This document shows, in pieces, positions 1 through 59,408 of a stretch of 64,000 nucleotides of DNA. Origin of the DNA: Flectonema sp. DT1601 (taxonomy: Eukaryota); contig OZ025790.1 in assembly GCA_964019425.1 (NCBI GenBank), forward strand, positions 1,426,001 through 1,490,000, in the 5' to 3' direction. The first letter of the stretch is position 1, and each line of letters starts with the position of its first letter. The translations under genes were made by a program, and so were the position numbers. The notes below the pieces were generated by a model that was not told the DNA's origin, did no database searches, and was given only the letters and a program-made list of their open reading frames with translations.

Positions 1-877
1 ATATTTTAATTTAGCCCTCAAAAGTATAACTACATTTGGTACCTTTTTTAAATTAAGAAGGTTAAACGCGATGAGTAGGACAGAGGTTTGGAAAAAATAT
101 TTATATTAATTGATGTCACGTAGTCTCCTGCTGCTGTACTTGGACAAGGTGGAAAGTTATCTCTTGATGTAGTATGCCCCCCCCACTGTGCTGAAACTAA
201 TAAAATAATCCTCTACGGGATTACGTTCATCTTCCTATCGCAGTATTGTAGACCTCTTTGAGTAGTCTACCAATACTACGGGTGGTCTGATGGACTTGCT
301 AACTAGTTATTTATTAATTTTGTAATGACTTCTCTAAAATGTCAACCGAAAAACGGAATGTGACTTCTGCTTGTTTTGATTGGCATCTTGTCACACTCAT
401 ATAGTCTTTCCTCCGGGTTTCGGTGGCGTCTTTTTTTTTTTTTTTTTTTTGCACTTAACAAGTATTGTAAGAACGAAAAAAGAATGTTGGGCAGCACACG
501 TAAACCTCCTTTAGCTTTATCAGTTTAAAGTCGGTTCACGAGGTGCACAAGCAACAGATCCCTCCTCAATCCATACCACCCCCAAAAAAAAGAAAAAAAA
601 AAAAACGATCGCTGTATTTTATTGTCTTAATCTTGTACCCCCCCATATTTGGTATTTTTTTTCCCCATCGGATGTGATGTGTGTTAATTATTATTTTTGT
701 TCCTTCCCTCAGCATCTTCGACAGCACGTATGGGACTTTAGCAACTGTTCTCTCTTTTCATTGTAACTAAGTTTGGCCGAACCCTATATTCCGGTTTAAG
801 TTACTTTATATTTCATCGCGATATCAAATAGATTATAATGTCTCCCCCCGCAGTTAAATTCCCCCCCTCAATGCTCA

Positions 878-3800: not shown

Positions 3801-5569
3801 CGGTGCCGACAGCAATTCCGACGGCGGTGCCGACAGCGATTCCAACAGCGATTCCAACTGCAATTCCAACGGCAATTCCAACGGCGATCCCAACTGCAAT
3901 CCCAACGGCAATTCCAACGGCGGTGCCGACAGCGATCCCAACAGCGATTCCAACAGCAATCCCAACGGCGATTCCAACGGCAATTCCAACGGCGGTGTCG
4001 ACAGCAATTCCGACGGCGATCCCAACGGCAATTCCAACGGCGGTGCCGACAGCAATTCCGACGGCGATCCCAACTGCGATTCCAACGGCGGTGTCGACAG
4101 CAATTCCGACGGCGATCCCAACTGCAATCCCAACGGCGATTCCGACGGCGATTCCAACGGCAATTCCAACGGCGGTGCCGACAGCAACTCCGACGGCGAT
4201 TCCAACGGCGATCCAGACAGCAATTCCAACAGCGCCGACAGGGATCCCAACGGCGACCCCAACGGCAATCCCAACAGCAATCCCAACGGCGATTCCAACT
4301 GCGATTCCAACGGCGGTGTCGACAGCAATTCCGACGGCGATCCCAACTGCAATCCCAACGGCGATTCCGACGGCAATTCCAACGGCGGTGCCGACAGCAA
4401 CTACGACGGCGATTCCAACGGCGATCCAGACAGCAATTCCAACAGCGGTGCCGACAGGGATCCCAACGGCAATCCCAACGGCGATTCCAACTGCGATTCC
4501 AACGGCGATCCCGGCTTCTGTGCCAACGGCAATTCCTACTGAGATCCCAACGACAATCCCGACAGCGATTCCAACAACTGCTGTGCCAACTGCAATTCTA
4601 ACGACGACTCCAACGGCAATCCCAACCGCTGCTCCAATTACTGCAACCCCAACAGCCATTCCGACTACAGTCCCGTCAGTGATTCAAAGCGCAGTACCGA
4701 AAGCGAACCCGTCACAAGTTCCAACGGCCATTCCGACAGAGAATCCAGCTGTTGTTTCAACTACTGCAATACCGACTGATGACGTGTCTACAACAACAAC
4801 AACAACAACGTTACCGTCAGTAATACCGACAAGAGGAGGAGAACCACTTTGTAGTAGCAGTATTGGATTGAAAATCTCAATGAATGAGAAAGATCGGAGT
4901 GATGAAAACATATTAATCACATCATGTGAGGAGGAGGTGTCTAGAATGAATATACAACCAGCCCTTTCTATAAAGTGTTGTGAGATGAAGTCTGGTGATG
5001 CGATTGTCTTCTTTGACCCTTTGGAAGCCAGTTGTGAAGTACTTCGTGAGAGTCTTTCTGTTGATGATCCGAAACAGTTTTTGGGTGAAGCTGTTGTATC
5101 GACGGAGTTCATTCTGAGTTGTGACAAAGAAACCAGAGCTGGAGCGAGCACATTCGAAAACAATGCAAGCGGAGATTGGATTGTATTAATATTTTGTATC
5201 GTTGGAGGGATCTTGGTCACATTTCTGATTGCAATAGCAACGTGGAAGGGACGACTAAAACGACGAAATCGACGTTCATCAGTCAACACAATGCCTCCTC
5301 CATGTCCACTTGTTCCTCAAGGTGGAAAGTTATGTGGAGCTCCTGACGATGTAGTCATCACAGTGAATGAACCTTTCAGATCAACACAATTGATAACTCC
5401 AGCTGATGATAACTTGTTTTTGTTACCAAGTCATCGTACTGATGGTGTTGACCATCTCTCACCAACATTCTCATCTGACTTGGTATTCTCTGATGTCGAA
5501 GTTGATGAGATTTCAGTTGCAATAACTTCACCGAATGCTGAAGTTATCTCTCCTCAAGCTTGGAGTTAG
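878..5569 (+). CDS. Mucin-like type I membrane protein with PTA(I/V) tetrapeptide repeats
   Basis: 1563-aa ORF: hydrophobic N-terminal signal, Cys-containing N-domain, long Pro/Thr repeat, TM segment WIVLIFCIVGGILVTFLIAIATW followed by basic KGRLKRRNRR; C-rich CAG acceptor at 851-853. Confidence 0.85.
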   Translation: MHRSVWIVLLSLFTDRVLSQTCLIATGASLSSANGKYIYNDAEGYWQLQNSYFYLLRDKKKWYVYYGNKKYYKYDDDGGDDKKKSCSTTDPEQIAECCNQGKKEKKLGGENCPAFEDCPQPTAVPTAIPTAVPTAIPTAIPTAIPTAIPTAIPTAIPTAVPTAIPTAIPTAIPTAIPTAVPTAIPTAIPTAIPTAIPTAIPTAIPTAIPTAVPTAIPTAIPTAIPTAIPTAIPTAIPTAVPTAIPTAVPTAIPTAIPTAIPTAIPTAIPTAIPTAIPTAIPTAVPTAIPTAIPTVIPTAIPTAIPTAIPTAIPTAIPTAIPTAVPTAIPTAIPTAIPTAIPTAIPTAIPTAIPTAVPTAIPTAVPTAIPTAIPTAIPTAIPTAIPTAIPTAIPTAIPTAVPTAIPTAIPTAIPTAIPTAIPTAIPTAIPTAIPTAIPTAVPTAIPTAIPTAIPTAIPTAIPTAIPTAIPTAIPTAIPTAVPTAIPTAIPTAIPTAIPTAIPTAIPTAIPTAIPTAIPTAVPTAIPTAIPTAIPTAIPTAIPTAIPTAVPTAIPTAVPTAIPTAIPTAIPTAIPTAVPTAIPTAVPTAIPTAIPTAIPTAVPTAIPTAIPTAIPTAIPTAIPTGVPTAIPTAIPTAIPTAIPTAVPTAIPTAIPTAIPTAIPTAVPTAIPTAIPTAIPTAIPTAIPTAVPTAIPTVIPTAIPTAVPTAIPTAVPTAIPTAIPTAIPTAIPTAIPTAIPTAIPTAVPTAIPTAIPTAIPTAIPTAIPTAVPTAIPTVIPTAIPTAVPTAIPTAVPTAIPTAIPTAIPTAIPTAIPTAIPTAIPTAVPTAIPTAIPTAIPTAIPTAIPTAVPTAIPTVIPTAIPTAVPTAIPTAVPTAIPTAIPTAIPTAIPTAIPTAIPTAIPTAVPTAIPTAIPTAIPTAIPTAVPTAIPTVIPTAIPTAVPTAIPTAVPTAIPTAIPTAIPTAIPTAIPTAIPTAVPTAIPTAVPTAIPTAIPTAIPTAIPTAIPTAIPTAIPTAVPTAIPTAIPTAIPTAIPTAIPTAVSTAIPTAIPTAIPTAVPTAIPTAIPTAIPTAVSTAIPTAIPTAIPTAIPTAIPTAIPTAVPTATPTAIPTAIQTAIPTAPTGIPTATPTAIPTAIPTAIPTAIPTAVSTAIPTAIPTAIPTAIPTAIPTAVPTATTTAIPTAIQTAIPTAVPTGIPTAIPTAIPTAIPTAIPASVPTAIPTEIPTTIPTAIPTTAVPTAILTTTPTAIPTAAPITATPTAIPTTVPSVIQSAVPKANPSQVPTAIPTENPAVVSTTAIPTDDVSTTTTTTTLPSVIPTRGGEPLCSSSIGLKISMNEKDRSDENILITSCEEEVSRMNIQPALSIKCCEMKSGDAIVFFDPLEASCEVLRESLSVDDPKQFLGEAVVSTEFILSCDKETRAGASTFENNASGDWIVLIFCIVGGILVTFLIAIATWKGRLKRRNRRSSVNTMPPPCPLVPQGGKLCGAPDDVVITVNEPFRSTQLITPADDNLFLLPSHRTDGVDHLSPTFSSDLVFSDVEVDEISVAITSPNAEVISPQAWS
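1238..4740 (+). repeat. 12-bp coding tandem repeat (CCN-ACN-GCN-ATH/GTG) with higher-order blocks
   Basis: Visible 12-bp periodicity; identical 120-bp blocks around 2041-2460 and 240-bp blocks around 2881-3600; degenerates after about 4200. Confidence 0.95.
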
Positions 5570-16223: not shown

Positions 16224-18412
16224 GGACTTGTTATTTAGTAAAAGAAGGACGCTACTCCAATTCACAGCTCCGTTCTATCAAAGCTGTTGATCATTCTGTT
16301 CTTTTTCGAATGATGGAAACTAATTTTGTTTCGATTCTCTTGAGCAGTATTCTCCTAAGAGAGCTACTGAGAGCTAATAGTACTTTGTGGAAGGGTTATT
16401 GCCTACCATAAATAAATTAATTACTTCTTTATTTAATAAAGGACGCTGGACAACACGAACTTTAATTCATAGCTCTGTTTCTCAAAGGGCAGCTGTTAGC
16501 CAAAACTAAAAAAAAGAATAAGGCTTGTTGGAAGCTATTTACTTGTTGACGAGGGGCCTCTTTTTTTCATTCTTTTTTTTTTTCTTTTCTTATTTTTTTT
16601 TTTTTTTTGTCACCAATGGACACGCGTGGTGGGTAGTATTTCATTGTGAGTTTGTGTGATCGGTTTTGCGTACAAAACAAAATTGCAACACTGGCTCTTG
16701 ATACGTATCACCCCAAAGTCTCTCGAAAAACATTTTTTTTTTCAGATTAAGGCATATCGATGCCCCGTTTATCTGTAGGTGATCTAAAAAAAAAAAAAAA
16801 TGAAAAAAAAAAATACCCCTATCTCCGTCAACGACTCGTTCTCACCCGAACGCAGTCTCAAAATTCTAACTTTTTTTTTATTATTGTAATTTATTAATAA
16901 AATCACATTTGTTTTGAGGGTTGTATTTTTACGTTTTTTGGAAAAAAAAAAAAAAAAAGCAAGCAAGTAAGTAATTATTCAGGGGGGTAATTTGATGGGG
17001 GGTACAAGCATTGATTTTACGGAGATTTTGGGCACTCTCGGTTTTTTTTCGGAGAAGAAATTTTTTGGGCAGCCAAATTATGAAAACTGCAACATATACC
17101 CCAAAAATGGGGATTGCGATCCAAAGAAACAGTTATTCGGCACTTTAGAACAAGTCTTTGAAAAATTTCAAAAAGTGTGGACCGTGTGGTACCTGAGGTG
17201 TGTTAGGAAACCTCACAAAAATTATAAGTAATTCTGCGCGTTGAGCAATCTGTAACCAGCGTCTCCCTCTGAGTCGTGTGGGAGATGAAAAGGGAACCAA
17301 ATTTATGTTTTTATCGACCTGATTTGAACCTTAATAATATGCCACTAGAACCGGCTTGTTATCCCCCATGTCCAATGTTTAGGCTACTGACCTTCTCTTG
17401 AGCATCCCATGTGCTCAGCTTTCGGAATTCGGCTCGAAGCTGTGCTTCTTTCTGTACAAGATAGACAGAGAACCAATCTTTGCATGCAGATGGCAGATTA
17501 GCATTGGACCTTGCTGTCTGGAGGTCTTCTCCGTGAGGACGGGGTGGTACGCGTAGCGCCTCCTGTTGTGTTTGCTTTTGCCAATCTGAGGACCTGCGCT
17601 GATGAGGCAGCCTTTAGAAGTCCGTGCCTCTGGAATATGTTGTACGTTATCAGTGGGGCGGTCCTCATTTCGTTAGTTCCGTTTATCCTGCTCGTGAGCC
17701 TCTCGGCCTTGAGCATGGCCGCGTTTAATCTCCCAAGTGGAATGGGTGACTTATTGTTCTTGAATTGGGGACCCCTTCAAGCATCCAATACTACTGTAAA
17801 GTACTCGTTCTTACCCCGAAGGCAGTCTCTAATTCTAACATCATTTTTTAATAGTTACTTTGCTCATCTGAGTTCGTTTTTTACCCAAAGTAGACAATTC
17901 TTGGGATTGAAAAAAAACAAAAAAAAAAAGGTTTCTTAGTTTCACATTGTAATCCCCCTAGTTGGAATGGGAGGGATGTGTTGGTGTTTATGTGTGTTGT
18001 GATGATTTCTTTGTTACTATAATTGAATTTGAGACCTTCAAAATTCCAACAGAGTCGTGGATCAAATCGATCTGTTTCCCTTGATCAGCCCTACAGGTAT
18101 AACTGTGAAACCTGTAGAGGTATAAGGGGGAAAGGAAAAAAAAAAAAAGAGAAGAGAAAAAAAAAAAAAATAAAAAAACAAAAAAAAAACAAAAATAATT
18201 TAAATTCTTTTCCCACATGAAAGGGTTAAGAAAAGTACGCTTCTAAAAATCCGATCGTTTTCTTGTTGTCAAGTCAGTTTATTTGTTTTTTTTGTTGTTT
18301 TTCTCACAACACAGGTTGATAATAATAATACATAATATTATGAAAAAAGAAGATCACAAACCATTATTATGTTAATAGTTACCATTAGTTACTTACGTTA
18401 TCTTCTTAGAAA

Positions 18413-18478
18413 CTTTCAGGTCTCAATGATGTAACCAATATTGGAAATTACTTCTTGTCTGAGTGTTCACAGATCACT
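18413..18478 (+). pseudogene. Isolated remnant of one LRR unit of the Ubl-LRR family
   Basis: Translates LSGLNDVTNIGNYFLSECSQIT, the same unit as in the neighbouring LRR gene, with no flanking ORF. Confidence 0.6.
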
Positions 18479-19817
18479 TGTTTTGTTAGTTGTCATCCTT
18501 GAGAAGTTAATATCCGTAACTGTTCAAAGGAAGTTTACAAACAGAGTAGAGCCGTAATAGTATTTTATAGGAAATCACAACCACAGAATATGTATGCGCT
18601 ATTTAGGAATCGAAAGCTGCTTTTCAGTTTTTCCTTATTACTTTACGATTGTTGCCGCCGTTTTGAACACTTCAGCAATTTTAATAAATATTTTTGTCTT
18701 TCAGTAGATTACTAAAAAAAAGAAGCAAATAAAACAACAATGCAAGTTTTTGTGACGTGTCCGGATTTAGGACTCCCTGCGGTGTCAGTCACAGTTGGTG
18801 CTGATTCTGTTGTGAGCGACGTGTTGACGACAGCGGCTGACGAGTGGGATGTCGATGCGGATGAAGTTGAACTGTCGTTCGCTGGTGATGCCCTTTGCGA
18901 AAATGAGCGGTTAGTAGATTATGGAGTGGGTGCAAACAGCGAGTTGGAAATGCGGGAGAAGCTGGTTCGGATCTTCTGTAAAAACTGGTTTGTTGATGAT
19001 AGAAAAAGAGAGAAGCTGCTTCTTTGGATGAAAGACCACATTACGGAGGATTTATGTCTGGACACTCCCACATTCTCAGAAGATGGTTGCCTCACTATTG
19101 ACAAAGGGTTGCTTCCTTCAGATGCCAAACGGATTTCCTTCCGCCATTCAAACTCCAACAGCAAGGTCATCTCACAAGTTACTTCTATTAAAGATCATTT
19201 CTTGTCTCGTTGTTCACACATCACTTCTCTTGACCTTTCAGGTCTTAGTAGAGTCACCAGTATTGGAAATCATTTTTTGTCTGAGTGTTCAATCACTTCT
19301 CTTGACCTTTCAGGTCTTAGAAGTATCACCAGTATTGGAAATAACTTTGTGTTTTCGTGTCCACAAATCACTTCTGTTGACCTTTCAGGCCTCCGTGGCG
19401 TTTCCAGTATTGGAAATGATTTCTTGTCTAACAGTTCAATTGCCTCTGTTGACCTTTCCGGTCTCAGTAGTGTCACCAGTATTGGAAATTGTTTTTTATC
19501 GTTGTGTTGTGCAATCACTTCTCTTAACCTTTCAAGTTTTAGTAGTGTCACCAGTATTGGAAACTTTTTCTTGTATTGTTCACTAATCACTTCTCTTGAC
19601 CTTTCAGGTCTTGGGAGAGTCACCAGTATTGGAAATCATTTCTTGTCTCGTTGTTCGCAAATCACTTCTGTTAACCTCTCCCGTTTTAGTAGGGTTTCCT
19701 ATATTGGAGATCATTTCTTGTCTGAGTGTTCACAAATCACTTCTCTTGACCTTTCAGGTCTTAGTAGTGTCACCAGTATTGGAAATAGCTTTTTGTATCG
19801 TTGTTCACGAATCACTT

Positions 19818-19885
19818 GGGATCACGACACCTGCCTCCTCGCGGCGGTCCCGGACGACTTCGATAGGGGTCGACAAGACGGTGTC
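19818..19885 (+). ncRNA. HDV-like self-cleaving ribozyme at the element 5' end
   Basis: P1 GGGATC/GGTCCC, P2 GACACC/GGTGTC, P3 GCC/GGC, L3 TCCTCGC, P1.1 CC/GG, P4 CGACTTC/GGGGTCG, J4/2 ACAAG with candidate catalytic C19874. The first G coincides with the TSD boundary. Confidence 0.85.
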
Positions 19886-20092
19886 AAAGACAAGAGATGC
19901 CAACACCATCAACACCAACTACCACATCCAGGGCATCCGTACCCTGGATGTTTTTTATCAAAAAAAGAACGGAACAAGCTAGCCCACGCCTTGAATGGCA
20001 ATGGTGGAACAAGAAAGAACAGCAGAGACCGTCGCCCCCGAGACGATACTCGCGACAGGGACGAAGACCGCCCAAACAAGGAAGAACGTCGG

Positions 20093-22804
20093 ATGGCGAA
20101 GCTCGAGAAAGAGAAACTCGACTCGCTCGACGAGATAGAGGAAGAGAGGCAACGGCTGGAGCAGCAGAAAACAGCCATGGAACAGCACCACCACCAGAAG
20201 GAAACCAACCTTCAAGGACAAGAAAAACAGTTGGAACAGCAACGCCAACACCAGCAACAAGAACTGCAAAGTCAGTACCACCAACAACAGCAGCAACTGC
20301 AAAGCCACCATCAGCTGAAGGAAACGGAAAGTCTCCAGAAGGAGCAAAACCTACAGGCTCAACTCAAAGAGCAACATCAGCACCAACAGAAGGAATTGGA
20401 GAAGCAATACCGCCGACGACAACAGCAACTGGAAAGCCAACAGCAGAAGAAGGACGCCGAGTCTGAACAGCAAACGCATCTGACTCGGTCACAACTACAG
20501 AAGGAAAAGGAATCCTTCCAGACGGAGAAGGAACGGCTCCACCTCCAGCTGGATCAGCAGCTAAAGAACGAGAAGGAGCACCTCCACCAACAACTGAACG
20601 CCGAGATAGGCAAACAGAAGCAGGGGCTCCAACTGAAGGAAGAGAAGCTCAAGGAGCAGATTGGACAGGAAAAAGTCCAACAACAACAAAAACTCCAACA
20701 GAAGGAAGACGAGATTCAACGGCGTGAAGAAGAGGTGAACCGAGGACAGCAGCAACTACACCAACAGCAGCAACAACTAGAGCAACAGCAACAGCAATCG
20801 CAACATCAGCAGCTGGAACTACAACAACAACGGCAACAACAACAACAACAGCATCAACAACTGGAACTGGAACAACAACAACTACAACAGCAACTGCAAC
20901 TGCAACAACATCGACAACCGCAACAACAACCGCAACAGCAACCCGTACACTACATGCAACATCAACCGTATGCAACGTACGACACCTACGCCCAGCAGCA
21001 GCAGTCTTCCCACTACGAAGGACTACAACAGGAACTGAAGCGCGAGAGAGAGGAGAAAAGCGAACTACGCGAGATGCTCCGAACTCTCCAACAACAACTG
21101 GACGGATTGAGAGAAGAACTCAAGGCCCAACATGCTGAGGCGAAGAGGCAGCAAGAAACGGCGGGACGGGAAGCGAGAGAGATGCAAGAACGTTTCTTGC
21201 TAGAACTGGAAGCGGAACGGGTCCAGATCAGAGGGCTCAACTCGCTGAGAGAAGAGGAAGAGGAACATCAGATGGACACCACCCCTGATCAGGAAGCAAA
21301 CACGGAAGCGAAGCAAACGCCACCGGTGAAGCTGCCCCAAGACGGTATGAGGGAGCTGGACGCCTCACGCAAGAAGCTGATGAAAGAAATCAATGAAGGG
21401 CAGGTAGCCGGACGATCGGCCATCCAAGAGCAGATGGTCCGAGAGGCCGGGAGACTGGCGCAGACTCAGAAGAGCTGGGAGAACGCAGCACGCAAGGAGC
21501 GATCCAGAGTGGATAACCTCTCGCTGGCACCGGAGTATTGGCCAGAGGGAATGGCAATCACGAAGGAGCAGTACGACGCCGGTACAAAGGGAGTACACCT
21601 CACCACCAGAGAGGAGGCAAGGAAGAGGATGTCGGGAACACCTCCGGGAGCCTGGGAAACGTTATCCCTGGTAACCCTGGAACCACCATCAGACACGGCG
21701 CAGAAAGTACAGGTAGTACTTAAGGAGACGACGAGCGACGGCGAGAAGAGAATTCTCAAGCAGCTCTGGATGACAACACTGGGAAGAGTGGTTGTACCAT
21801 CCGGAACAGACGTCGTGCGGACGGAAAGCACGAGGGAGATGGTTGTCCGAGTGGACAAAAAATGGTCCGGAGAGAAGAGATGGTCGGAAGTGAAGCGCTC
21901 CCCGATCAGGGCAACGGAAGAGTTGAGGAAGATGCCGGGGTATGTCGATACGTACAACCCGCGGATTGGAGACCAGAGCGTCACGGTGATGCTCAGGGTG
22001 AAGGTAGCCGAAGTGAAGAACTTCCTCCGAGAATCGGGGAAGGACGGCGTCTTCACCAAGGAAAAGGATCCGAGAGAGGAACGAGCAGTGAAGGCGGCGG
22101 TCATTTGGCTACCGAAGGACGAGACACTCGGAATCGCTCGAGACAAGGCTGTAGAAGTCGATGGAGGGCTGGGACTTGTGGTAAACGAACACGGACTCGG
22201 GCTTCGAGTGACCAGCTGGCAGGAAACGGCGGCGAGGGAGAAACTGCACCTGCCGGCTAAGCTACCGGAAACAAAGATCACGGGTATCCCGATCGGCACA
22301 ACCACCGACGAAGCGATCAAGTGGCTGATCACGAAGGAAGGCTGGGAAGTGAGGAAGACGAAGGAAGGCGTACGGAACGGCATGCGATGGATGGTCGTCC
22401 GCGGTCCGGTGAGAACGCAGGAAACCATCACGGTGGATGGCGTCCTGTGCATGGTGGAGGCTGGGAAACAGAAGGTGGAAGTCGACCCGAAACGGAAGGA
22501 GACCAAACGCCCGAATGCGACACCGACAAAACCGGAGAAAAGGCGTGACCCGACGGAGGGAACGGGAGGAAAGTGGTACACTCGATTGGAGTTCATCGAG
22601 TTTCATGGGAAGAAGAAGGGACAACGCCTATGGTTAGAAGCCAGCAACCCAACACCAACTACGACGGCACCTACGAAGGCAGCGACCGCAACGACAACAG
22701 CGAAAAAGGAGCCCAAGTCGACAAAAAAGAAGGAGAACAGCTCAGTGGACGAGAGATTGGACCGACTGGAACGTCTACTGATGGCGTTCATGGAACGGAA
22801 TTGA
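20093..22804 (+). CDS. Retrotransposon A1 ORF1 (poly-Q coiled coil plus conserved C-terminal domain); start uncertain
   Basis: First in-frame ATG inside the element is 20093, but the frame is open from 19818; Q/E-rich coiled coil; ends AAT-TGA. Confidence 0.75.
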   Translation: MAKLEKEKLDSLDEIEEERQRLEQQKTAMEQHHHQKETNLQGQEKQLEQQRQHQQQELQSQYHQQQQQLQSHHQLKETESLQKEQNLQAQLKEQHQHQQKELEKQYRRRQQQLESQQQKKDAESEQQTHLTRSQLQKEKESFQTEKERLHLQLDQQLKNEKEHLHQQLNAEIGKQKQGLQLKEEKLKEQIGQEKVQQQQKLQQKEDEIQRREEEVNRGQQQLHQQQQQLEQQQQQSQHQQLELQQQRQQQQQQHQQLELEQQQLQQQLQLQQHRQPQQQPQQQPVHYMQHQPYATYDTYAQQQQSSHYEGLQQELKREREEKSELREMLRTLQQQLDGLREELKAQHAEAKRQQETAGREAREMQERFLLELEAERVQIRGLNSLREEEEEHQMDTTPDQEANTEAKQTPPVKLPQDGMRELDASRKKLMKEINEGQVAGRSAIQEQMVREAGRLAQTQKSWENAARKERSRVDNLSLAPEYWPEGMAITKEQYDAGTKGVHLTTREEARKRMSGTPPGAWETLSLVTLEPPSDTAQKVQVVLKETTSDGEKRILKQLWMTTLGRVVVPSGTDVVRTESTREMVVRVDKKWSGEKRWSEVKRSPIRATEELRKMPGYVDTYNPRIGDQSVTVMLRVKVAEVKNFLRESGKDGVFTKEKDPREERAVKAAVIWLPKDETLGIARDKAVEVDGGLGLVVNEHGLGLRVTSWQETAAREKLHLPAKLPETKITGIPIGTTTDEAIKWLITKEGWEVRKTKEGVRNGMRWMVVRGPVRTQETITVDGVLCMVEAGKQKVEVDPKRKETKRPNATPTKPEKRRDPTEGTGGKWYTRLEFIEFHGKKKGQRLWLEASNPTPTTTAPTKAATATTTAKKEPKSTKKKENSSVDERLDRLERLLMAFMERN

Positions 22805-22888
22805 CCGGCGGAGGACGGAAGGAACTGGGCGGAGACACGGAGACGTCTCCTGCTACAAGCTGGCGACGTTGAGAGGAACCCCGGACCG
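22805..22888 (+). other. 2A-like StopGo peptide (LLLQAGDVERNPGP) directly after the in-frame ORF1 UGA
   Basis: Matches the D(V/I)ExNPGP consensus; in frame with both ORF1 and the APE domain; no ATG. Confidence 0.9.
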
Positions 22889-25800
22889 AGACCACGAATC
22901 GATGGGCTCACCGTGGGAACAATCAATGTCACCACACTAGAAGGAAAAATAGATGCCATCACAGATCTGAACCTAGATCTGATAGCTCTACAGGAAACTT
23001 CTCTGACGGGCCCACAGCAACGCCAGATGAAAAAACAGCTCGGTGAGAGAGGATGGGAAACGACGTTCGGATTAGAGTGCAAATTACTAACCGATGGGCA
23101 AAAGACGTGGACGGCGGCAGGAGGCGTGGCCATCTTGACGCGCACTGGTACACCGGTGAGAAGGATAAAACACGATCGGCTCGACAACACGGGACGATTC
23201 GTACACGCGGGAGTGTCGTACGGAAATGGCAAGGTACTGCACGTTTTCTCGTTCTACGGAGACGTACGTTCGGCGGTCTACACGGAAGAGTTGATTGCGG
23301 AGATGCTCGTGGAAGCAGCAGCTCTGGGTGATGTTCCCGTATTTATAGCGGGGGACTTCAACGTCGAAACAACGGAATCGCCGGCGCTTCTGTCGGCTTT
23401 CGCACACGGACTCTGGATAGATGCCGCCGTCTCGATGGGAAACATGACACCGACAAGCGAAGCGGGAAAAGGACTTCGTAGAATCGATGCTATTCTGATG
23501 AACCGCGGGGCGGCGACAGCAATCTCGAATGACACAACGATTCATGTGCATAAGAGTGAGCTGATCCCGACACACAAGCCGGTCATCATTAGAAAGCTCA
23601 ACATCTCACGCTACAACGAGAAGGCTCCTAGGCTGATAGTACCGAAACAGTTGGATACCTCCGAGACAACGGACCCGAGTGAGGGGAAGGCCGAAAGGCA
23701 ACTCCACTGGACGCGAGCTGTAGCGACGGAAGATCCTGACAAGATGCTGGAGGCGCTTGGAGAGATCATCGAAAGATACCTTCTGACGGGAAAGCTGGAG
23801 ATAAGTAACCCAGCCAAGTACAAGGGACGCGGGAAGAAGCGTGAGCCTGTGATGTGGACGAACGCGGCGAAACAAGACGGGAGAGGAGCGACGTGCAGGG
23901 AAACGCGAAGAAGACTGCAGAAGATACGTGTTCTGGAGGAAGTGATGAAAATCACAAAGCAACGCGATGGTCCGACGGTGCCGTCCCACGAAGTAATGAA
24001 ACTCTGGAAAAAATTACGAAAACTCGATCCGACGACGGGATCCGAAATACCACAGACGGAGGAGCTTCGGATACTACTACACAAGCGAGACAGGAGCAAG
24101 CGATAGAAAGCAAGAAGCTCCGAACTGAACGCATCCGCATGTGGAAACGGAATGTTGTCGACAATTGGAACGACGACCGCACGAAGGTTTTCCAGTGGAT
24201 CAGGAACGTCGAGCAATCGAAGACTGTTCTGATGGAAAAGGCAGATGGAAGCTGGACGGCCAACTGCTCCGAGATGGATGAGGCCATGCACGCGGCATGG
24301 GACCCCATACTCAAAAAGTACTTATCAGACCCGGAACCAGACTGGATGAAGTTCGAAGAACGGTACAGCAACTACATCGAGGAACACCCGATGCGATGCG
24401 AAGATATCACCGGGGAGGACGTTGCAAAAGCCCTCAGAAGAACTAGCTCGCGCAAAGCAGCTGGGGTAGACGGCTTCAGGATATCGGAGCTCAAGTCGCT
24501 ACCGGAGGACATGATTCAGATGATAGCGGAATTCTACAACATAGTGGAGAGAACACACTGGCCGGAAGCACTTCTCACGGCACTGGTGTCGGCCATACCC
24601 AAAGGGGCAGGGACGAAACCACTGGAGCAGAGACCCATTACGGTGACATCCGCACTTTACAGACTATGGGGCTGTATACGTATGGAAAAGGATGTAATGG
24701 AGTGGCAAGAGAAGTGGGCTCACGACGGGCAGTACGGCTACCGGAAGGGGAGATCTACGCTCGACCTCAGCTGGAAGATAGCACTAGACGTGGAACACGC
24801 AACTCTCTACGGAGAAGAGATTGCTGGAGTGACCACGGACTTCAGGAAGTGTTTCGACCTGATCCCGCACGACATCCTCCTGAAATTGGTGAAGGAATTG
24901 GGCCTCGGTGATGAGATCCTGAGAACTGTGACGGATGTCTACCGGCGACTCAGAAGGAGATTCAAGTTCCCGAGCGGCGTCGGAGAAGAATTTGCCACCA
25001 CCAACGGAATACTGCAAGGATGTCCGCTCAGCGTGGTGCTCTTCAATGCGCTGAGCTCGATACTCAGCAAAGCAATCGAGAGGGAAGCCGATGTGACGCC
25101 CGGATCGTATGCGGACGACCTGACGTTGTTTGGATCACGAACGAAGCTACAAGAAGGCGTAGAAGTCGTTGCGGAGTTCTGCACCCTGACCGGACAAGAA
25201 CTCGCACCTCAGAAGTGCAAGTGGTTCTCGAACAGAGACCAGGGCCAGACCAACATCACAATGGGGGACACAACACTGGACTTCGATGACAGTGTCGATA
25301 TCGTGGGATGCCACCTCAGTATGAAAGGAACCACCAAGCAGATTGGGAGGATCACGGAAGAAGTGCTCGATAGAGCGAGGCGAATCCGGTTACTTCCGCT
25401 CAGATATCAAGCGAAGGAACAGATAGCTGCAGCTAGTGTCATGCCCAAGGCGCTCTTCGGAACGGCACTGTACGATCCCGATGCGACGCGACTCGGACTG
25501 CTGAGAAGAGCAATGGCAACGGGGATTTTCCGCAAACTTGGAGGGAAAAGAACTAAGATGTCGCACACCATGGGCCTAACGCTACTCTGCAAGGGACATT
25601 GTGTGGATCCCGCGACGTACATTAGGTACAACAGACTCCTTGCACTCACCAGAATGCTACCGAAGCTAACTGAGAGGATACGCAGGGTATGGGAACACCT
25701 GCAAGAGCACACTGAAGCGACGAGAGGACCAGTCGGCCTCGCCCTGAGTACTCTGAAGGAACTTGGATGGGAATGGTCAACTTTCTCGGTCTTCGAAGGT

Positions 25801-27540
25801 CCGGGAGGGACGACCGAACACGGAAGGCTGGATGCGGGGCGCTGGCGGCACGATGTCAGAGAGGCGTGCAGACGTTTCACCTGGAACAAAACAATTGCGG
25901 AAACGAGACGGGTAAACCTGAGAGGTATTGAAGCGGGCATCGACCGGAAAGAGACCCTGAAGGTCCTGAAGGAAGGAAAGGGCGACCCCTACCTGCGCGG
26001 AGTAGTGAAGCACTGCCTCCTGGACAACGTGTACACTGGCTCGATGAAGGCGGGAAACAAGAACTGCGCGCACTGCGAGGAGGTTGACGACGTAGAGAGG
26101 ACGGAGACCCTCGAGCACGTGAACTGGGATTGCAGAGCTTATGACACAATCCGACAGGAATACCCGCAAGTGATGCTACAAGTTCGAAGCGATTGGCCCA
26201 ATTGCCTGAGGCTACTCGGCATCAAGCCCGACAATGTGGAACTGCCGGCGGGGCTCACCGGAGACCTACAACGAATGTTCGCACGGATCAGGCTCCGCAG
26301 GGACGACTACCAACAACTGGAGGAAAGACGGCTGACGGTTGTGGAATACGCTGGGAACAAGGAACCGGAAGTGGTTATGCGATACAACAACAAACTGGAA
26401 AAGTACATGCCAGTATACACCCAATGGCCCGAAGCCCTTGGATTGACCTTGTACTTGGCGCTTGCGAGCTACCTGAGGGAACTGAAGTGGCCTCGACAGC
26501 CAGACGGAGTCGGAGTCACCTTCCTGGAATTAGCGATCGACTTCGAAGCGTATGCGGGGGTTGACATACCGACCACAGTCCACGAAGGCCACGTAGCGAA
26601 GTGCACCAAAGACAGAGCCGCCGGGAAGAAAGCTGACGTCATGTGTGGACTGATGCTAAGATTGAACTTGGTTCACAAGCATTTAGAAGGCGAGGAACAA
26701 AGAACCTTTCCCGACTACTGCGTAGGAAGCAACAAAGCCTTACGTCCGCTAGGAGCCCCGGTACTGAAAGGTTTGAAGAAACGACCAGCTTTTCTGATGG
26801 GAGACGAAACAGTAGACACAATTCGGAGGACGGTCCAAGAGGCGAACGACGGAAAAGCTGACAAAATCAGATTCGGCTTCGAGACTGAGTGCAGGCACTC
26901 GAGCGAGAGGGAAGGGAGAGCGGAGAAATGGATAACCGCGGCACGACTTTTCCCATCAAAGGAAAAAGACGTACAGCTGAGGAGGGAGCTCTGCGAGCGA
27001 GGACCGACACGCCCGCCACCCGAGGTCGTCAAGAGACCGGGCATCGCGGAAGGACAAGGAACGATGAACTCGACGTGCTACGGACACTTCAAGAAAAAAT
27101 GCAATAGTTGTCGACGGGCCGGAAACACCATCTACCAGTGCTGCCACAACCATCACACTCTGGGGGATGAAGATGGACAAATACCGATATGGGACTTTTG
27201 CAGCAAGCACAAGCTTACTCCATGTGCAGTCTGCATAGTTATCGGCAGAGGATCTGAGCAATGTTGCAGAAACAGCCACCACCGATGCCGTCACCACGAG
27301 ATGGCTCCCTGCAACGACTGCAAGCGGAATCCGGATCCGGAACAACGGACTGCCACGAAATGCTGCAACAAAAAGCATCACGGGCCAATTATAAGGACGT
27401 TGACGAGGAGGGCGAAGCAGCCGACGAAGCATGATATGCAAACCAGCACATCTCTTCTAAAATTAGGTTTCACCAAACAAATGAAACCGAAAGCAGAGGA
27501 AACCCCGGAAAGGGAACCACAGGACAAGGGGTTAACTTAG
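22805..27540 (+). CDS. Retrotransposon A1 ORF2 (APE, RT, CCHC, Cys/His repeats) with one frameshift near 24080
   Basis: APE: TINVTTL, ALQET, AGDFN, RIDAIL, THKPV. RT: QRPITV, DFRKCFD, GILQGCPLS, YADD. CCHC: CAHC...EHVNWDC. The APE ORF stops at 24106 and RT continues in another frame. Confidence 0.9.
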
Positions 27541-28739
27541 GTTGGCCGAACCAGTGCCTCGTCATCTCACCGTGCTAGCAAGCCTGAATGACAGCACTCA
27601 AAATGGTACATATATCGTTGTTCACGAATCACTTCTCTTGACCTTTCAAGTCTTAGTGATGTAAAGGAAATTGGTAGAAAACCCCTCGTTAGCTGCAGCT
27701 CCCTAAAATCTGTTCAGCTGCCTAAAAATAATGGCGCTATCTTTGAGAGGGTTATGAAATTTGAAAATTTAAATGTAAAGTGTTGAACCGATTCTTGGTT
27801 GTCATTTTTTCTTCTTCTTTTTTTTTTTTTTTTTTTACTTTTTTTTTAAAGTATCACAAAAGAGCTTTAACAACGACAGATTGCTCTGAAGTTGCTCCAG
27901 AAACACCTTCCAGTTGATCATCTTGAATTCCATCCTAAATAGATGAACACTCTATTAAGGGATTTGGTTATTTGAGTGTTCGGACATCATAGTTTTTAGA
28001 GAGGAGCTTCATGTGTGACCGACACAACCTGAAACTTAAAAGGTAACCGGTAGGATGTGTTGTAGCATTTGTGATGAGAATATTCTACACAAAACAACTT
28101 TTAATCTCACATTCCGATATAGTCAAAGAGAATGTGATCATGATGTTTGTTTTGTGATTATTTATATGTTCCCGCATGTGGTGCCTCAGTTTTTCAAGAT
28201 CAATGCAAAAGAACTTATCACTCGCAGCTTAGTCTTGCGAAATATGCTACAAGTTTGCTACGAACGGAGAAATATTTCATTTTGATTATTTTTTGAAAAA
28301 TAATTTTCGAAAATAGTTTTTCTAATATTTATTTTATTCAAAGTGTGTAAAGAAGTACTAAGTCTTTTTTAATTTTCCTTTAATATTTATTTGCTTTTGA
28401 AGTGTGAGAGAATACTATTTTAAGCTGCAACAGACTACAGGGCATGGTAGTACGTGTCCCCCGAACCCCATATTCGACAGCACATATGGAATTTTTATTG
28501 ATACCAATTGCAACGAGGTTGGCCGAACCCTATTCTTGTTTTAGCCAGTTTCAAGTTGCTTTCAATTTAATATTAGTATCAAGTTACTCCCCACTGCTAA
28601 TAATGGGGGAGCCTCAGTCTGATTGTTTAGGGAGGACTCCTTAGCCTCCCAAGGATTTTGTTATGTTTACTGAAAGAGAAATTGATGCGAATAATTGCAA
28701 TGCAGGAAGGGTGGGGAGAAAGTACATAACACTTAAAGT

Positions 28740-29300: not shown

Positions 29301-29797
29301 TCTCATCATTTTTAACCAGGGGGGGGAAAAAAAAACCTTTTCTCGTTTGTTTTTTTTTTAAATAACGGGACTCAGATAAAAAAAAAAAAAAAAAAAAAAA
29401 CTAACTAACCTTTTTTTTTTAATTTTTTTATCCTAATCTGAAAAATTAGTTCTGAACTTTAACGGGGATGTCAACACGATGTCGCTATGCTGTAATTGAT
29501 TGTTCTAGTTGGTATTGTTAGTCTTTCTTTTTTTTTTTGAAAGAAAGAAAGAGAGAGAGAGAGAGAGAAGGAAACATTATTTTTTTTCAAAAAAAAAGAA
29601 AGAATAAAAACTCAGGTACTTGTTATTTTAATCTGTAGTATTGTACTTACTGTTGTTCTTAGGTCACTAATTACAAAACAATGATGGTTTTTTTTTTTTT
29701 TTTAATTCCTTGTCTTGTTCGAAAAATAACTACGAGACGCAACATTAACTTCATTCATACTATCAGTTATTTATTATATTTATTAAAAAAAATAAAA

Positions 29798-30925
29798 ATG
29801 GTTCACTTTCACATTAGAGGAGAAACAAAGCCTGCAGAGAGAAGAACTGCAGTAACACCTGATGACGCAAAGAGACTTATTGAAGCTGGTCACCAAGTGA
29901 CGGTTGAAAGTTTTCCTGACAGATGTTTTCCCGACGCAGCATATGCTGAGGTGGGATGTGCAATGGCTGAAGCTGGATCATGGGAGAAGATCGATCAAAG
30001 TAGAGTAATCTTAGGACTGAAGGAATTACCTGAGGGAGACAGTGGACTACCACATCAGCATATCATGTTTGCTCACTGTTTCAAATACCAAGACGGATGG
30101 AAGGAAGTAATGAAGAGATTCACATCAGCAAAGGGAACCCTCTTCGACTTGGAGTTCCTCAAGGAAGAAAACGGTCGCAGAAAGGTGGCATTTGGTAAGT
30201 CTGCAGGATTTTGTGGAATGGGCACTGGAATCCTATGCTGGGCCCTCCAACAGCAAAGCGGCGACAAAATGACTCGCAACGCCCTACCAGCTGACCTTTG
30301 GTACCGCACCAGAGACGAATACATTAACGCCTGTGCTGACGCTATAAAGAAAACAGGAAAGGGATTTCCAAAGGTTATGATCATCGGAGCTCTTGGTAGG
30401 TGCGGATCGGGAGCCACTGAAATGGCTCTTGCGACGGGAATTCCAAAGGAAAACATCGCCATGTGGGACATGGCAGAGACTTCAAAGGGAGGACCTTTCA
30501 AAGAAATATTAGACTATGATGTTTTTGTTAATTGTATCTACTTGGACCCAAAAACTAAGGCTGCTCCATTCTTGACTACAGAAATGCTGAACAGCGATAG
30601 AAAGTTATCAGTCATGGTCGATGTCTCTTGTGATCCAAACAACCCAGCCAACCCTGTTCCTGTCTACAAGGAATGCACAACATTCTTAGAACCTGTTAAC
30701 CGAATTGTAGCCCCGAGTGAGGGAAAAGCTCCTTTCGATGTTATTGCCATTGATCACTTGCCTTCCCTTGTTCCTTGTGAGAGCAGTACAGAGTTCAGTG
30801 CAGGACTCCTTCCGATGTTAATCGACTTTGAGAAGGATAGTGAAAATGTTTGGTCTCGTGCCAAGAAAACTTTTGAAGAAATCGCCGCACTTCCAGAGAT
30901 GAAGGATCAGACAAGTCAGCTGTAG
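29798..30925 (+). CDS. LYS1: Saccharopine dehydrogenase (NAD+, L-lysine-forming), copy 1
   Basis: Motifs RGETKPAERR, ILGLKEL, FAHCFKYQ, DLEFL, IIGALGRCGSGA, DVSCDPNNP, IDHLPSL; ATG at 29798 by comparison with copy 2. Confidence 0.92.
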   Translation: MVHFHIRGETKPAERRTAVTPDDAKRLIEAGHQVTVESFPDRCFPDAAYAEVGCAMAEAGSWEKIDQSRVILGLKELPEGDSGLPHQHIMFAHCFKYQDGWKEVMKRFTSAKGTLFDLEFLKEENGRRKVAFGKSAGFCGMGTGILCWALQQQSGDKMTRNALPADLWYRTRDEYINACADAIKKTGKGFPKVMIIGALGRCGSGATEMALATGIPKENIAMWDMAETSKGGPFKEILDYDVFVNCIYLDPKTKAAPFLTTEMLNSDRKLSVMVDVSCDPNNPANPVPVYKECTTFLEPVNRIVAPSEGKAPFDVIAIDHLPSLVPCESSTEFSAGLLPMLIDFEKDSENVWSRAKKTFEEIAALPEMKDQTSQL

Positions 30926-32146
30926 GCTTTGGGGTGTTGATGGGAAGAAAGGAAAGAAATTGTCAAATCCCCCAAATGGAAAATGTCGCACCCCCCATAA
31001 GGTGATCATTCTCCCAGTGGGGTAAAAAAAAAAAAAAAAAGAAAGAAAAAAAAAAAAGAGCAATCTTCCTGTCTACAAAAGCATGCATGTTCACATTAAA
31101 AAGGAGTTTTTCGCAACTCTGGGAACACACACAGTAGTAGACTACATCATTTTCAGAGTTCAGTTTGTTTTTACCTTTTTCTTTTTCTTTTTCTTTTTTT
31201 TTTTTTGCCTCCACTCAAAACTCCAATTGCATGTGGTACAAAGAGATCGGAGAGATTTGGAAGAAGAAAAAACAACAGAATTCTGTTTGCGGTTCCTATG
31301 AGATGGAAATTTCGTTCTTTTTTTTTGCTTGTAAGTTATCAGTGCTCGTAGATATATCGGTCCCCTTTAAAATATTAGGATACATCGTTTTTTGGGATGA
31401 ACAGGAATAAAAGAAAACAAAAAATAAAAGAAACAACTTTGACTACTAAAGTGATAAAAGACTACTCACTCTCGTTGTGTATTTCTTCATTTGGCTCGCG
31501 CGCAGAATGTGTAAAATATTCGCGACGGCTTTATTAATTTCGGGAGTTGATTCGCTGTGTGTTTTTTTTTTGCTGAAAGAAAAAAAAAAACGAAGGAAAA
31601 AAAAAAGAAAAACACCCCTCTTACTCCCATTTTTAATTTTTTTTTTGTTGTCGTTGTTGTTGTTGTCTTTTGTTCCATTGCTTCGGTAGTCAAATAAAGT
31701 AAGTTTAAGCAATTAAACATGAAAAAAAATTAAATTAAATTCTTATTTTTTTCACTTCAAGGAATAAATGACCAGACCACTAGACGGTCCTTTCGTAAAT
31801 CAGTTTTCACATCCGTCAGCGACAGACGAATGCTGTGTTTCCGTCATGCGGAAGAATTACAGAACGAACTGTCACTGATGTGGTGAAACGGGTGGGACGA
31901 AATGTCTCAAGACCCAACTAGGCAACGACGAAACCACCCAAGCCAGGTGGTTGCCTGAGGCATCCCAGGAATGGGTGTGTCCTACAAAACATCAACAAGT
32001 GTTATATTACTATTTTCTGTATAGTTTAAGATAAAGCCAATTCTTTTTTTTAATTCCTTGTCTTGTTCGAAAAAAATAACTACGAGACGCAACATTAACT
32101 TCATTCATACTATCAGTTATTTATTATATTTATTAAAAAAATAAAA

Positions 32147-33274
32147 ATGGTTCACTTTCACATTAGAGGAGAAACAAAGCCTGCAGAGAGAAGAACTGCG
32201 GTAACACCTGATGACGCAAAGAGACTTATTGAAGCTGGTCACCAAGTGACGGTTGAAAGTTTTCCTGACAGATGTTTTCCCGACGCAGCATATGCTGAGG
32301 TGGGATGTGCAATGGCTGAAGCTGGATCATGGGAGAAGATCGATCAAAGTAGAGTAATCTTAGGACTGAAGGAATTACCTGAGGGAGACAGTGGACTACC
32401 ACATCAGCATATCATGTTTGCTCACTGTTTCAAATACCAAGACGGATGGAAGGAAGTAATGAAGAGATTCACATCAGCAAAGGGAACCCTCTTCGACATA
32501 GAATTCCTCAAGGAAGAAAACGGTCGCAGAAAGGTGGCATTTGGTAAGTGGGCAGGATTTTGTGGAATGGGCACTGGAATCCTATGCTGGGCCCTCCAAC
32601 AGCAAAGCGGCGACAAAATGACTCGCAACGCCCTACCAGCTGACCTTTGGTACCGCACTAGAGACGAATACATTAACGCCTGTGCTGACGCTATAAAGAA
32701 AACAGGAAAGGGATTTCCAAAGGTTATGATCATCGGAGCTCTTGGTAGGTGCGGATCGGGAGCCACTGAAATGGCTCTTGCGACGGGAATTCCAAAGGAA
32801 AACATCGCCATGTGGGACATGGCAGAGACTTCAAAGGGAGGACCTTTCAAAGAAATATTAGACTATGATGTTTTTGTTAGTTGTATCTACTTGGACCCAA
32901 AAACTAAGGCTGCTCCATTCTTGACTACAGAAATGCTGAACAGCGATAGAAAGTTATCAGTCATGGTCGATGTCTCTTGTGATCCAAACAACCCAGCCAA
33001 CCCTGTTCCTGTCTACAAGGAATGCACAACATTCTTAGAACCTGTTAACCGAATTGTAGCCCCGAGTGAGGGAAAAGCTCCTTTCGATGTTATTGCCCTT
33101 GATCACTTTCCTTCCCTTGTTCCTTGTGAGAGCAGTACAGAGTTCAGTGCAGGACTCCTTCCGATGTTAATCGACTTTGAGAAGGATAGTGAAAATGTTT
33201 GGTCTCGTGCTAAGAAAACTTTTGAAGAAATCGCCGCACTTCCAGAGATGAAGGATCAGACAAGTCAGCTGTAG
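32147..33274 (+). CDS. LYS1: Saccharopine dehydrogenase, tandem copy 2 (5 amino-acid differences)
   Basis: Near-identical to copy 1, including the 5' flank and much of the 3' flank. Confidence 0.9.
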   Translation: MVHFHIRGETKPAERRTAVTPDDAKRLIEAGHQVTVESFPDRCFPDAAYAEVGCAMAEAGSWEKIDQSRVILGLKELPEGDSGLPHQHIMFAHCFKYQDGWKEVMKRFTSAKGTLFDIEFLKEENGRRKVAFGKWAGFCGMGTGILCWALQQQSGDKMTRNALPADLWYRTRDEYINACADAIKKTGKGFPKVMIIGALGRCGSGATEMALATGIPKENIAMWDMAETSKGGPFKEILDYDVFVSCIYLDPKTKAAPFLTTEMLNSDRKLSVMVDVSCDPNNPANPVPVYKECTTFLEPVNRIVAPSEGKAPFDVIALDHFPSLVPCESSTEFSAGLLPMLIDFEKDSENVWSRAKKTFEEIAALPEMKDQTSQL

Positions 33275-35830: not shown

Positions 35831-37376
35831 TACTGGTGTGGAGGATGTTCCGCTCGCCCTTTTTGTAATTTTGAGTTGCATGACCGAAGACAATCTTTCT
35901 TTTCGCCTTTTATTTCCAATCCCGTCGCCTCCGGGAGTTTAATTGACTAACCAGTAAGGAAATTTTAATTTACATTCGTGCGTGACGGCTAGAGGAAGTG
36001 GGGTGTAGCAAGGTAATGGCACTTTGCCACGACTGTTGACCGCATTTGCGGGTTATCACGTTTTCCTTTTGCTTCAGGTCTTTTGTTAGTAGTGAGGTGT
36101 GCCGCGTTAAAGATTTTCTTATAACGTGTTTCGCCATCTTGAACTGCCTTTAATATAGTTTTCGTATCATCAAATCCCAATATATATACGGCTATTGACA
36201 AAAGGCCGCCCCCGACGATACCTCAACCAGGTTTGGCCGAACGCTATATTCGTTTTTGCCAGTTTCAAGTTGCTTTGAGTTATCAAGTTACTCCCCCTCT
36301 GCAGGTTTTGGTTTCCCGAAACAAGAGATGTGAGTAGTTACGTCATTTGCGGAGTGTTAGCCTGTATTAACATTGTTAGTCACTTGTGTCATGAGTTTTT
36401 TAATTTCATTATTTAGCTTTTTATTCAATATACCTATCCAAGTCCCGCTGACAGTCAAGATTGTCGGAGAAATTGTTGTTCCTTTTGAGCTTGTGAAGTT
36501 GTATTAAGGTTGTAAGGGAATCCCAAAAATACGGGAATGGGAAACAAGAGGACTTCCCCTTTTTGTTTCACCTCAGAATGAAGGAGGAGTTATTTATGAC
36601 TCATTAGACGAACGATCGCATTATTCGATACGTCGGTCAGTCGAACAGCCGAAGAAGGTTACTGAACAAGTAATAAATCAGGGCCTAACAGATCCTTTTT
36701 ATATGTTTATTTGAGAAAAAGAAGTTAATTATCCTTTTGCGAGATGGTCTCATTTCCCCTCTCTTTTGATACTTCGATAGGTTCGAATAACGTGGTGTAC
36801 TTTGGTATGAAAGGAGTACTTGGATAAGTAAGGTAGGTACCCCTTTTCAGAATGTCAATTTGGGATAAAGAAAATTTATTCAATTTTCGACGCATCAAAT
36901 ACCCACACGTAGACTCATGTGCACCAAAAACCAGCATGTTTAGCTACCATAGCGAACAACGATTTTGACCTTCGTCATGAAATTGCTAAAGTCCGCCTAC
37001 GAAACAGGGATACTCAGAAAACAGTTAACGGAAAACTGGGGCTCACAATACTGCTACATTTATTCACGCCCCATGTGTACTTAATGGGTAGCGCCTCCCT
37101 CAAATATTATTATAAAGTAGCCCGACGGAGTGTTGCTTCACTCGACAATATTTATTGTAAAATAAATGTTCAGGTTTCAAGATCGTACATCATTTAATCT
37201 GCCTCGTGTGTGACTTTCTTCCGGTCCCTTGGCGGTCCTTTCGTAAATCAGTTTTCACATCCCTTTGTAGAAATGTAATTACATATCGCATCCGAGTAGT
37301 ATTCGATACCCAGACATGACTTGAACATGTTTTTCTTTACAGCAGTTACAACCTCTCAGCAACATTACTCAAAACA

Positions 37377-52369: not shown

Positions 52370-52372
<3 letters not shown>

Positions 52373-52403
<31 letters not shown>

Positions 52404-53503: not shown

Positions 53504-53554
53504 AACGATTCTAAAGCTACAGTTTCTGTACTTTATTGTTTCTGTACTTTATTG
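53504..53554 (+). other. Retroposed spliced-leader exon followed by a second partial SL relic
   Basis: AACGATTCTAAAGCTACAGTTTCTGTACTTTATTG then TTTCTGTACTTTATTG; the 3' half matches the conserved kinetoplastid/diplonemid SL exon; no GT donor follows. Confidence 0.9.
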
Positions 53555-53577
53555 ATTTACAAAAAAAAAAATAAAAA

Positions 53578-59367: not shown

Positions 59368-59408
<41 letters not shown>

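Follow-up and report, generated by a model that had tools for sequence, protein, structure and literature searches.

Element A1 in the window (the 64,000-nucleotide stretch of DNA analysed here, at its full length) begins with an HDV-like ribozyme fold on the plus strand (19818..19885), with a predicted cut at 19817/19818, a predicted catalytic C19874 and a host/ORF1 reading frame that passes through the fold without a stop. A1 itself is probably an APE-RT retrotransposon of diplonemid type that occupies, in sense orientation, a single site within BspA-type LRR genes, with the ribozyme at its 5' end. As judged from sequence, the clade belongs among HDV-like ribozymes and the window copy is a variant with the predicted fold; cleavage at 19817/19818 by C19874 is highly probable for the family and less so for the window copy. 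LINEs with a 5' HDV-like ribozyme are known, and A1 widens their range to diplonemids. The surprise lies in the setting, as an APE-type element occupies one site in a protein-coding repeat in two genera, in frame with the host, and carries its ribozyme within an open reading frame. Searching the literature for diplonemids, retrotransposons and ribozymes, we found no paper on the subject. For Diplonema papillatum, about 2500 retroelement gene models have been reported, the ends of which are not described (PMC10161547), and the Diplonema genome paper does not use the word 'ribozyme' in its main text.

The fold is a nested double pseudoknot of 25 pairs distributed over P1, P1.1, P2, P3 and P4. 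A first-pass annotation had claimed that the full double pseudoknot can be drawn by hand, and all of the helices that it named were located. P1 (19818-23/19846-51) comprises 6 bp including one U-G, compared with about 7 bp in the HDV-like ribozymes described in the available text of PMC3774820, and starts with G1 paired to a pyrimidine (G19818-C19851). A 7-bp P1 starting from T19817 was rejected, as it would consume a P1.1 G and the base preceding G1 differs in the A1 protein P0111. A 2-nt J1/2 leads to P2 (19826-32/19878-85; 7 bp, C19879 bulged), followed by P3 (19833-35/19843-45) with L3 (19836-42, TCCTCGC). L3 has the U, C, C, C and G of HDV-like ribozymes, and the two P1.1 guanines are present as G19852-G19853 (descriptor rules as in the available text of PMC6326823), forming the pairs C19837-G19853 and C19838-G19852. 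P4 (19855-61/19866-72) has 7 bp with two G-U pairs and a GATA loop. A19873 comes next, and then C19874, the catalytic cytosine at the start of J4/2, whose position is kept in relatives.

The position of the fold relative to the insertion is exact. The 22-mer at 19796-19817 recurs once, at 27613-27634, while the corresponding 23-mer does not recur, so that G19818 is the first base of A1, and the predicted cleavage site coincides with the boundary of the target site duplication, as had been claimed. A1 thus spans 19818 to ~27612, flanked by both copies of the 22-mer. The 5' copy of the duplication (19796..19817, 19-22 bp) lies inside one LRR unit (..C-S-R-I-T|), and the 3' copy (27613-27634) is followed by the remainder of the host LRR gene through its stop (27613..27786); three bases at the edge, TAT, could also be part of the A1 tail. 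All parts of the element lie on the plus strand. The ORF1 frame (19817..22804), continuous with the host frame, encodes ~1000 aa, including a coiled region rich in Gln and, at the C-terminus, a conserved domain that has no Pfam match. Its TGA stop is followed in frame, 14 codons later, by a class A 2A-like peptide (22847-22888; stop and peptide together 22802..22888). ORF2 (22805..27540) encodes an APE-type endonuclease, a reverse transcriptase and a Cys/His-rich C-terminus, lacks RNase H and carries a frameshift near 24080 in the window copy; a 3' UTR with a short TA run at its end completes the element (27541..27612). The best named relatives of the A1 reverse transcriptase are found in D. 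papillatum (~42%) and, at 68-71% within the part searched, in Flectonema neradi. The full-length U2 snRNA of the window indicates a eukaryote, and these relatives, taken with a Euglenozoa-type spliced leader in the window, make a diplonemid the most probable host.

We next consider whether such a fold could arise by chance. A descriptor search of both strands of the 64-kb window returned a single locus, compared with 29 loci in 2686 locally shuffled windows (~0.01 per window), or 109 loci in the same number when one P1 mismatch was allowed; the descriptor was composed with the candidate in view, and its match also begins at the first base past the duplication. The model search that the first-pass annotation had called for turned out less favourable. 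No ribozyme was reported by Rfam at the gathering threshold, and the HDV_ribozyme model (RF00094), which describes viral sequences, gave 18 bits (E 2.1), below its cut-off of 50. The folding energy was ordinary as well (z 0.42, by a method that does not include pseudoknots). The weak score and ordinary energy would be expected if the fold were a fortuitous arrangement in a GC-rich 5' end, an explanation we regard as scarcely credible given the shuffling result and the exact duplication boundary, and which is contradicted by the compensatory changes and the conservation in two reading frames described below.

A profile search of 1.84 billion proteins yielded 148 matches. As the relatives are known as proteins only, their ribozyme bases were inferred from codons. 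Searches of nucleotide collections added nothing further: the exact 24-base ribozyme pattern had 0 matches in metagenome contigs, and aligning ORF1 to metagenome and viral contigs gave 117 and 92 pattern matches, respectively, 0 of which were confirmed. Two proteins named by their source as Flectonema neradi transcript products (P0136/P0282) have an ORF1 core 38% identical to that of A1. P0136 shares its Trinity gene with an ORF2 relative and is fused to an LRR protein at the equivalent site. Across the ribozyme, 9 of 23 codons differ from A1, forcing 10 base changes, and nonetheless the 25 pairs can all be preserved along with C19874, which random change sets achieved in 31/3000 and 4/3000 cases. 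The changes fall in J1/2, the free L3 base, J4/2, one P1 pair (G-C to G-U) and P2. In P2, A19827-T19884 becomes T-A, with both changes forced, and T19832-A19878 becomes C-G, with the G forced and the C needed for P3. With helix registers of P0137 and P0237 fitted by eye, the cathepsin-fused family can form 22/22 pairs and the remote P0237 23/24, each with a CNRA J4/2 strand (0-1 of 500 shuffles). The covariation check proposed by the first-pass annotation came out positive, with the helices kept in relatives as judged from their codons.

Three sibling ORF1 families, 58-59% identical, provide a different line of evidence. Their proteins begin with MP[PS]RGGLGR, which matches the A1 core, read in a different frame that includes an AUG, to within 2-3 bases over 27 nt, and they have T-x-x-C where A1 has J4/2 and P2. 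No other 9-mer among 145,970 came within 4 bases of the A1 core. Conservation of the core in two reading frames implies that the constraint acts on RNA. For the siblings' P2, 4-6 pairs could be drawn by eye, with upstream codons available for P0124 alone. P4 feasibility by itself is weak evidence, as 51/400 and 16/400 random peptides also manage it, and a loose core pattern matched 39 of 220,836 positions, unrelated places included; of the latter matches, we used those at ORF1 5' ends only and excluded P0233 from every count. In the sibling copy P0124, the first half of the ribozyme is doubled at the 5' end (GPHKMPPRGGL twice). Most of the ORF1 tree lacks resolution, a single one of its 15 inner branches being starred, so that placing the AUG-less frame as ancestral draws on pairwise identities only.

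At nucleotide level, a low-depth contig from run X1 crosses the A1 5' junction at the LRR site, with three different flank letters; run X2 did not cover the ribozyme. Between X1 and A1, 2 differences are listed in the 68 ribozyme bases, and the 124 bases that follow show 30 (Fisher p 7e-5), with 24 further differences assumed to lie downstream. Because the stretch downstream of the ribozyme is of low complexity, part of this divergence may reflect misalignment. One of the two ribozyme differences breaks the P2 pair C19831-G19880, and the other restores CAAA in J4/2. This strand is where A1 departs from the HDV-like consensus C-N-R-A. In the descriptor from the literature this strand is CRRA, and A78 stacks on A77 (available text of PMC6326823), whereas A1 reads CAAG, with G19877 in the place of HDV A78 in 5/5 A1 copies as judged by translation, so that a search demanding CNRA misses A1. 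The consensus is present in the X1 contig and compatible with the codons of Flectonema, P0137 and P0237, and active HDV-like ribozymes with a longer J4/2 have been described (PMC10879173). The first-pass annotation had mentioned neither G19877 nor two features presented below, the LRR target that is in frame and the motif resembling a cleavage site.

The deviating J4/2 raises the question of whether the A1 family inherited a ribozyme that has since decayed, its 5' end reflecting full-length RNA made by other means, for example from an internal promoter as in Pr77. Together with CAAG, the bulged P2, the 6-bp P1 and the Rfam E-value of 2.1 would fit such decay; foldable yet inactive R2 ribozymes are known (PMC3774820, available text), and Pr77 is promoter and ribozyme at once (PMC4035085, available text). 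We nevertheless judge decay unlikely, since nothing is disrupted in P1, P3 or P1.1, in the U and G of L3 or at C19874, the ribozyme region of X1 is better conserved than its neighbour, and ORF2 is intact (1542 aa) in 4 of the 15 members listed from a 22-member cluster. A ribozyme at the exact A1 5' end, as proposed in the first-pass annotation, is supported by covariation and by 5/5 informative copies, with cleavage itself being predicted.

The gene into which A1 inserted encodes, in its 5' part (18740..19817, plus strand), a ubiquitin-like domain and BspA-type LRRs (Pfam LRR_5, E 8e-22), and a T-rich stretch with an AG, at 18691-18704, is a possible trans-splice acceptor of the gene. An LRR fragment lies upstream at 18400-18480, and an uninterrupted ubiquitin-like and LRR paralog with the same N-terminus, its target-like sites unoccupied, is found at 37320-38372. 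The host frame continues without a stop across the A1 5' end as far as the ORF1 stop. Five A1 proteins reach the 5' end (P0112, the window copy, and P0081, P0111, P0296 and P0295); P0285 starts at an internal Met, and the remaining cluster members are fragments that start further in and are uninformative on this point. In all five the element starts at an identical codon position, while the LRR paralogs ahead of it differ. None of the copies examined has the 5' extension that the first-pass annotation had named as a refuting outcome. Four of the five are in frame; in P0295, at the LRR site too, the LRR is read in another frame. Together with X1 and the F. neradi element, which is in frame with an LRR host at the equivalent site, these different paralogs mark A1, among the copies found, as a site-specific non-LTR element. 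A further family is fused in frame into cathepsin genes. Of ten P0137 cluster members, seven reach the 5' end, every one behind an upstream frame with a Met: three follow two different papain-family (cathepsin) genes (..GCNGGL|), and four, on one contig, follow a short frame without a Pfam match (..WQGEL|). The in-frame count is inflated, because it is chiefly the copies with an in-frame fusion that can be detected. Its location at one host-gene site, mostly in frame, suggests that A1 rides on host transcripts, and we consider its transcription from the host gene very probable.

ORF1 itself lacks an evident start. Its frame is open across the ribozyme without an AUG, and 51 codons in, it encodes NKLAHALNGN (19973..20002, plus strand), a match to the totivirus-like motif NKxMHxxNGN, after which cleavage occurs in the polyproteins of two totivirus-like viruses (PMC7968656, available text); the predicted N-terminus of ORF1p would follow the last Asn. 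In four lineages, the distance from ribozyme to motif is 51, 49, 62 and 44 codons with no stop, and in 7 of 8 proteins checked the first Met lies behind the motif. In A1, the first in-frame ATG is at 20093 and is missing in 3/5 copies, and none of ATG, GTG, CTG, TTG, ACG or ATH occurs in frame before the motif. Five successive X1 changes at 19957-19987 fall on third positions of the ORF1 frame, indicating that the stretch ahead of the motif is under coding constraint. As ORF1 has no AUG before this conserved coding stretch, translation should start upstream of or inside the ribozyme. An alternative start would be ATG 19897, 12 bases past the ribozyme, coupled to a +1 frameshift near 19955-19966. 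It lies in the siblings' frame, is followed by T and A runs, and no X1 change is listed there; however, the run is altered in X1, and in the Flectonema, P0137 and P0237 lineages no stop interrupts the host-type frame, starting with the first base, making this route highly improbable.

The motif reaches beyond A1. The pattern N-x3-H-x3-GN, relaxed after viewing the sequences, occurred 31 times in 296 fetched proteins compared with 0.4 in shuffles, many occurrences being copies and 12 representing distinct families. It is located near ORF1 starts and once, in P0071, before an ORF2-type protein (RNase H-APE-RT), where 2A sits elsewhere. As remote ORF1 relatives (P0155, P0160, P0162, P0212 and P0223, near their starts) and P0071 carry it, the motif is wider than the A1 clade. 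Nor is it specific to host fusion, since of the three sibling families, which have their own AUG inside the ribozyme, two retain it. The literature yielded the motif in PMC7968656 only, where the available text reports it for totivirus-like viruses only; it was absent from the available text of two 2A surveys and from the main text of PMC5018817. A remote ORF1 relative that follows a ubiquitin-like domain, P0233, has a core-compatible stretch in the frame used by the siblings and, where the NGN motif would be, an OTU protease domain, possibly another route for shedding a host leader.

How these features combine into a life cycle can be read in two main ways. The most far-reaching reading, held tentatively and with slightly less than even confidence, is that a clade of diplonemid LINEs consists of in-frame C-terminal passengers of multicopy gene families (BspA LRRs, cathepsins), with the codon phase fixed per lineage. 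These elements would use the host's promoter, spliced leader and AUG, have their ribozyme read as coding sequence and lose the host-encoded portion at NxxxHxxNGN, a motif for cleavage or skipping of the kind found in viruses, while a leaky ribozyme divides the RNA into uncut message and cut template. Host-gene transcription would read into A1, and the ribozyme would cut the host-driven transcript at 19817/19818 to provide the RNA to be reverse-transcribed, which would explain the exact A1 5' ends. From SL-capped transcripts escaping cleavage, ORF1 would be translated from the host AUG, ORF1p would be separated at NxxxHxxNGN from the leader encoded by host and ribozyme, and ORF2p would be freed by read-through of the UGA together with 2A. 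Host-AUG initiation on uncut transcripts with subsequent trimming at the motif is the route that we favour, at about even odds. A slow ribozyme, with its CAAG and bulged P2, would suit the split between message and template. An uncut host-element junction is present in the Flectonema transcript assembly; being confined to one Trinity gene, it could reflect DNA carry-over.

Alternatively, the ribozyme cuts and translation begins on the cleaved RNA without cap or AUG, with in-frame fusions arising incidentally, from the constant phase of the target and from the manner of detection. HDV-like ribozymes of R2 and L1Tc have been proposed to aid cap-independent, IRES-like translation (PMC6765202, PMC12203849; available text), and initiation of this kind would account for the open frame and the leader-trimming motif too. 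P0295, being out of frame, and the AUG-bearing siblings, which keep the motif and indicate that the clade can manage without a host start, point in the same direction. Yet no frame match would be required, whereas the LRR sites of both genera and one cathepsin site are in frame, and there is no near-cognate start in frame before the motif. We regard initiation on cleaved RNA as a serious possibility, albeit a rather doubtful one. If the passenger reading is true, the NGN motif would be a self-processing peptide common to RNA viruses and retrotransposons. The question of how uncapped, ribozyme-cut retrotransposon RNA is translated would also change, as it may not be translated at all if uncut, host-capped transcripts are the message. 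More generally, the A1 clade points to APE endonucleases with new sequence preferences and to a short self-processing motif.

R2 elements encode a restriction-like endonuclease and target 28S rDNA, while A1 has an APE domain and an LRR target, a protein-coding repeat with which it shares one frame, placing it outside the R2 clade. Like R2 (PMC3774820, PMC12203849; available text), A1 is site-specific in a multicopy host gene, probably co-transcribed and equipped with an HDV-like ribozyme at or near the 5' junction. Such ribozymes free R2 and L1Tc RNA from co-transcripts (PMC6765202, PMC4035085, PMC3774820; available text). With L1TcRz/Pr77 of the trypanosomatid L1Tc-ingi elements (PMC4035085, PMC6765202; available text), A1 has in common that a euglenozoan APE-RT element carries a compact HDV-like ribozyme in its first ~70 bases, along with a target duplication, a 2A-like peptide before the endonuclease and polycistronic host transcription. 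L1Tc/ingi elements possess RNase H, no ORF1 and little insertion specificity according to the available text of the same papers; unlike them, A1 has a ~1000-aa ORF1, lacks RNase H, carries a stop before 2A and has a fixed LRR-gene target. With two ORFs and no RNase H, it also differs from the single APE-RT-RNase H ORF with Pr77 that defines the L1Tc/ingi clade. APE-type non-LTR elements with 2A have, like A1, a class A motif just before APE, and are mostly without ORF1 (PMC3708506, available text; for 2A in LINEs see also PMC3894237, available text), whereas in A1 the ORF1 TGA lies 14 codons ahead. Repeated host sequence as target is shared with sequence-specific non-LTR elements (PMC5035012, available text). 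The target list in the available text of that paper holds no fixed in-frame targeting of protein-coding families, nor did we find any in a literature search to which most subscription journals and Repbase were outside scope. As for the motif of the IMNV and Omono River virus polyproteins, the viral NHVMHALNGN is close to the A1 NKLAHALNGN; in the virus, structure shows new N-termini directly after the last Asn (PMC7968656, available text), as compared to a sequence match alone in A1.

A second element in the window, A2 (53504-59405), comprises ORF1, TGA, a 2A-like peptide, APE-RT-RNase H and poly-A. Its 5' end (53504..53554, plus strand) consists of a nearly complete spliced leader (53504-53538), which agrees with 'Euglenozoa 14' (PMC3795323) in 33/35 bases, and a 16-nt relic of one, which begins right after the internal AG of the leader, as expected of two rounds of trans-splicing and retrotransposition. 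The descriptor search detected no ribozyme in A2, and no target duplication of at least 9 bases was found. The first-pass annotation had proposed that A1 and A2 share ORF1 and the recoding junction and mature their 5' ends differently. The junction is indeed common to both (AAT-TGA-C, then a 2A-like peptide), whereas for ORF1 the claim goes too far, with 25% identity over 110 aa (pairwise E 3e-6). Likewise, the contrast in 5' ends is real for the two copies, the leader being seen in one A2 copy, but it separates distant clades rather than members of one family: the reverse transcriptases are 26% identical over 201 aa, and RNase H is present in A2, not A1. By sequence comparison, A1 and A2 are remote relatives and not one family with two maturation routes.

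The A2 5' end adjoins a fragment of element B, which encodes RT and RNase H and lies in two pieces (52370-53503 and 59620-62752, minus strand). Near 62720-62760 it is met by another RNase H frame, which lies opposite on the plus strand (62685-63803). The frame at 63857-64000 matches the N-terminus of P0117, which continues with a poly-A run and a 5'-truncated sibling copy; P0082 and P0126 also start behind poly-A, their truncation lying within the ribozyme core or immediately past it. Insertion into the poly-A tails of other elements may thus be preferred by the siblings that bear an AUG. Elsewhere in the window, we noted a long ORF on a 12-base tandem repeat with several frames open (839-5569, Pfam PT repeat), two tandem genes with alanine dehydrogenase/PNT-type domains (29663-33274), and a full-length U2 snRNA gene (51755-51946, plus strand) facing a tRNA gene (52280-52353, minus strand).
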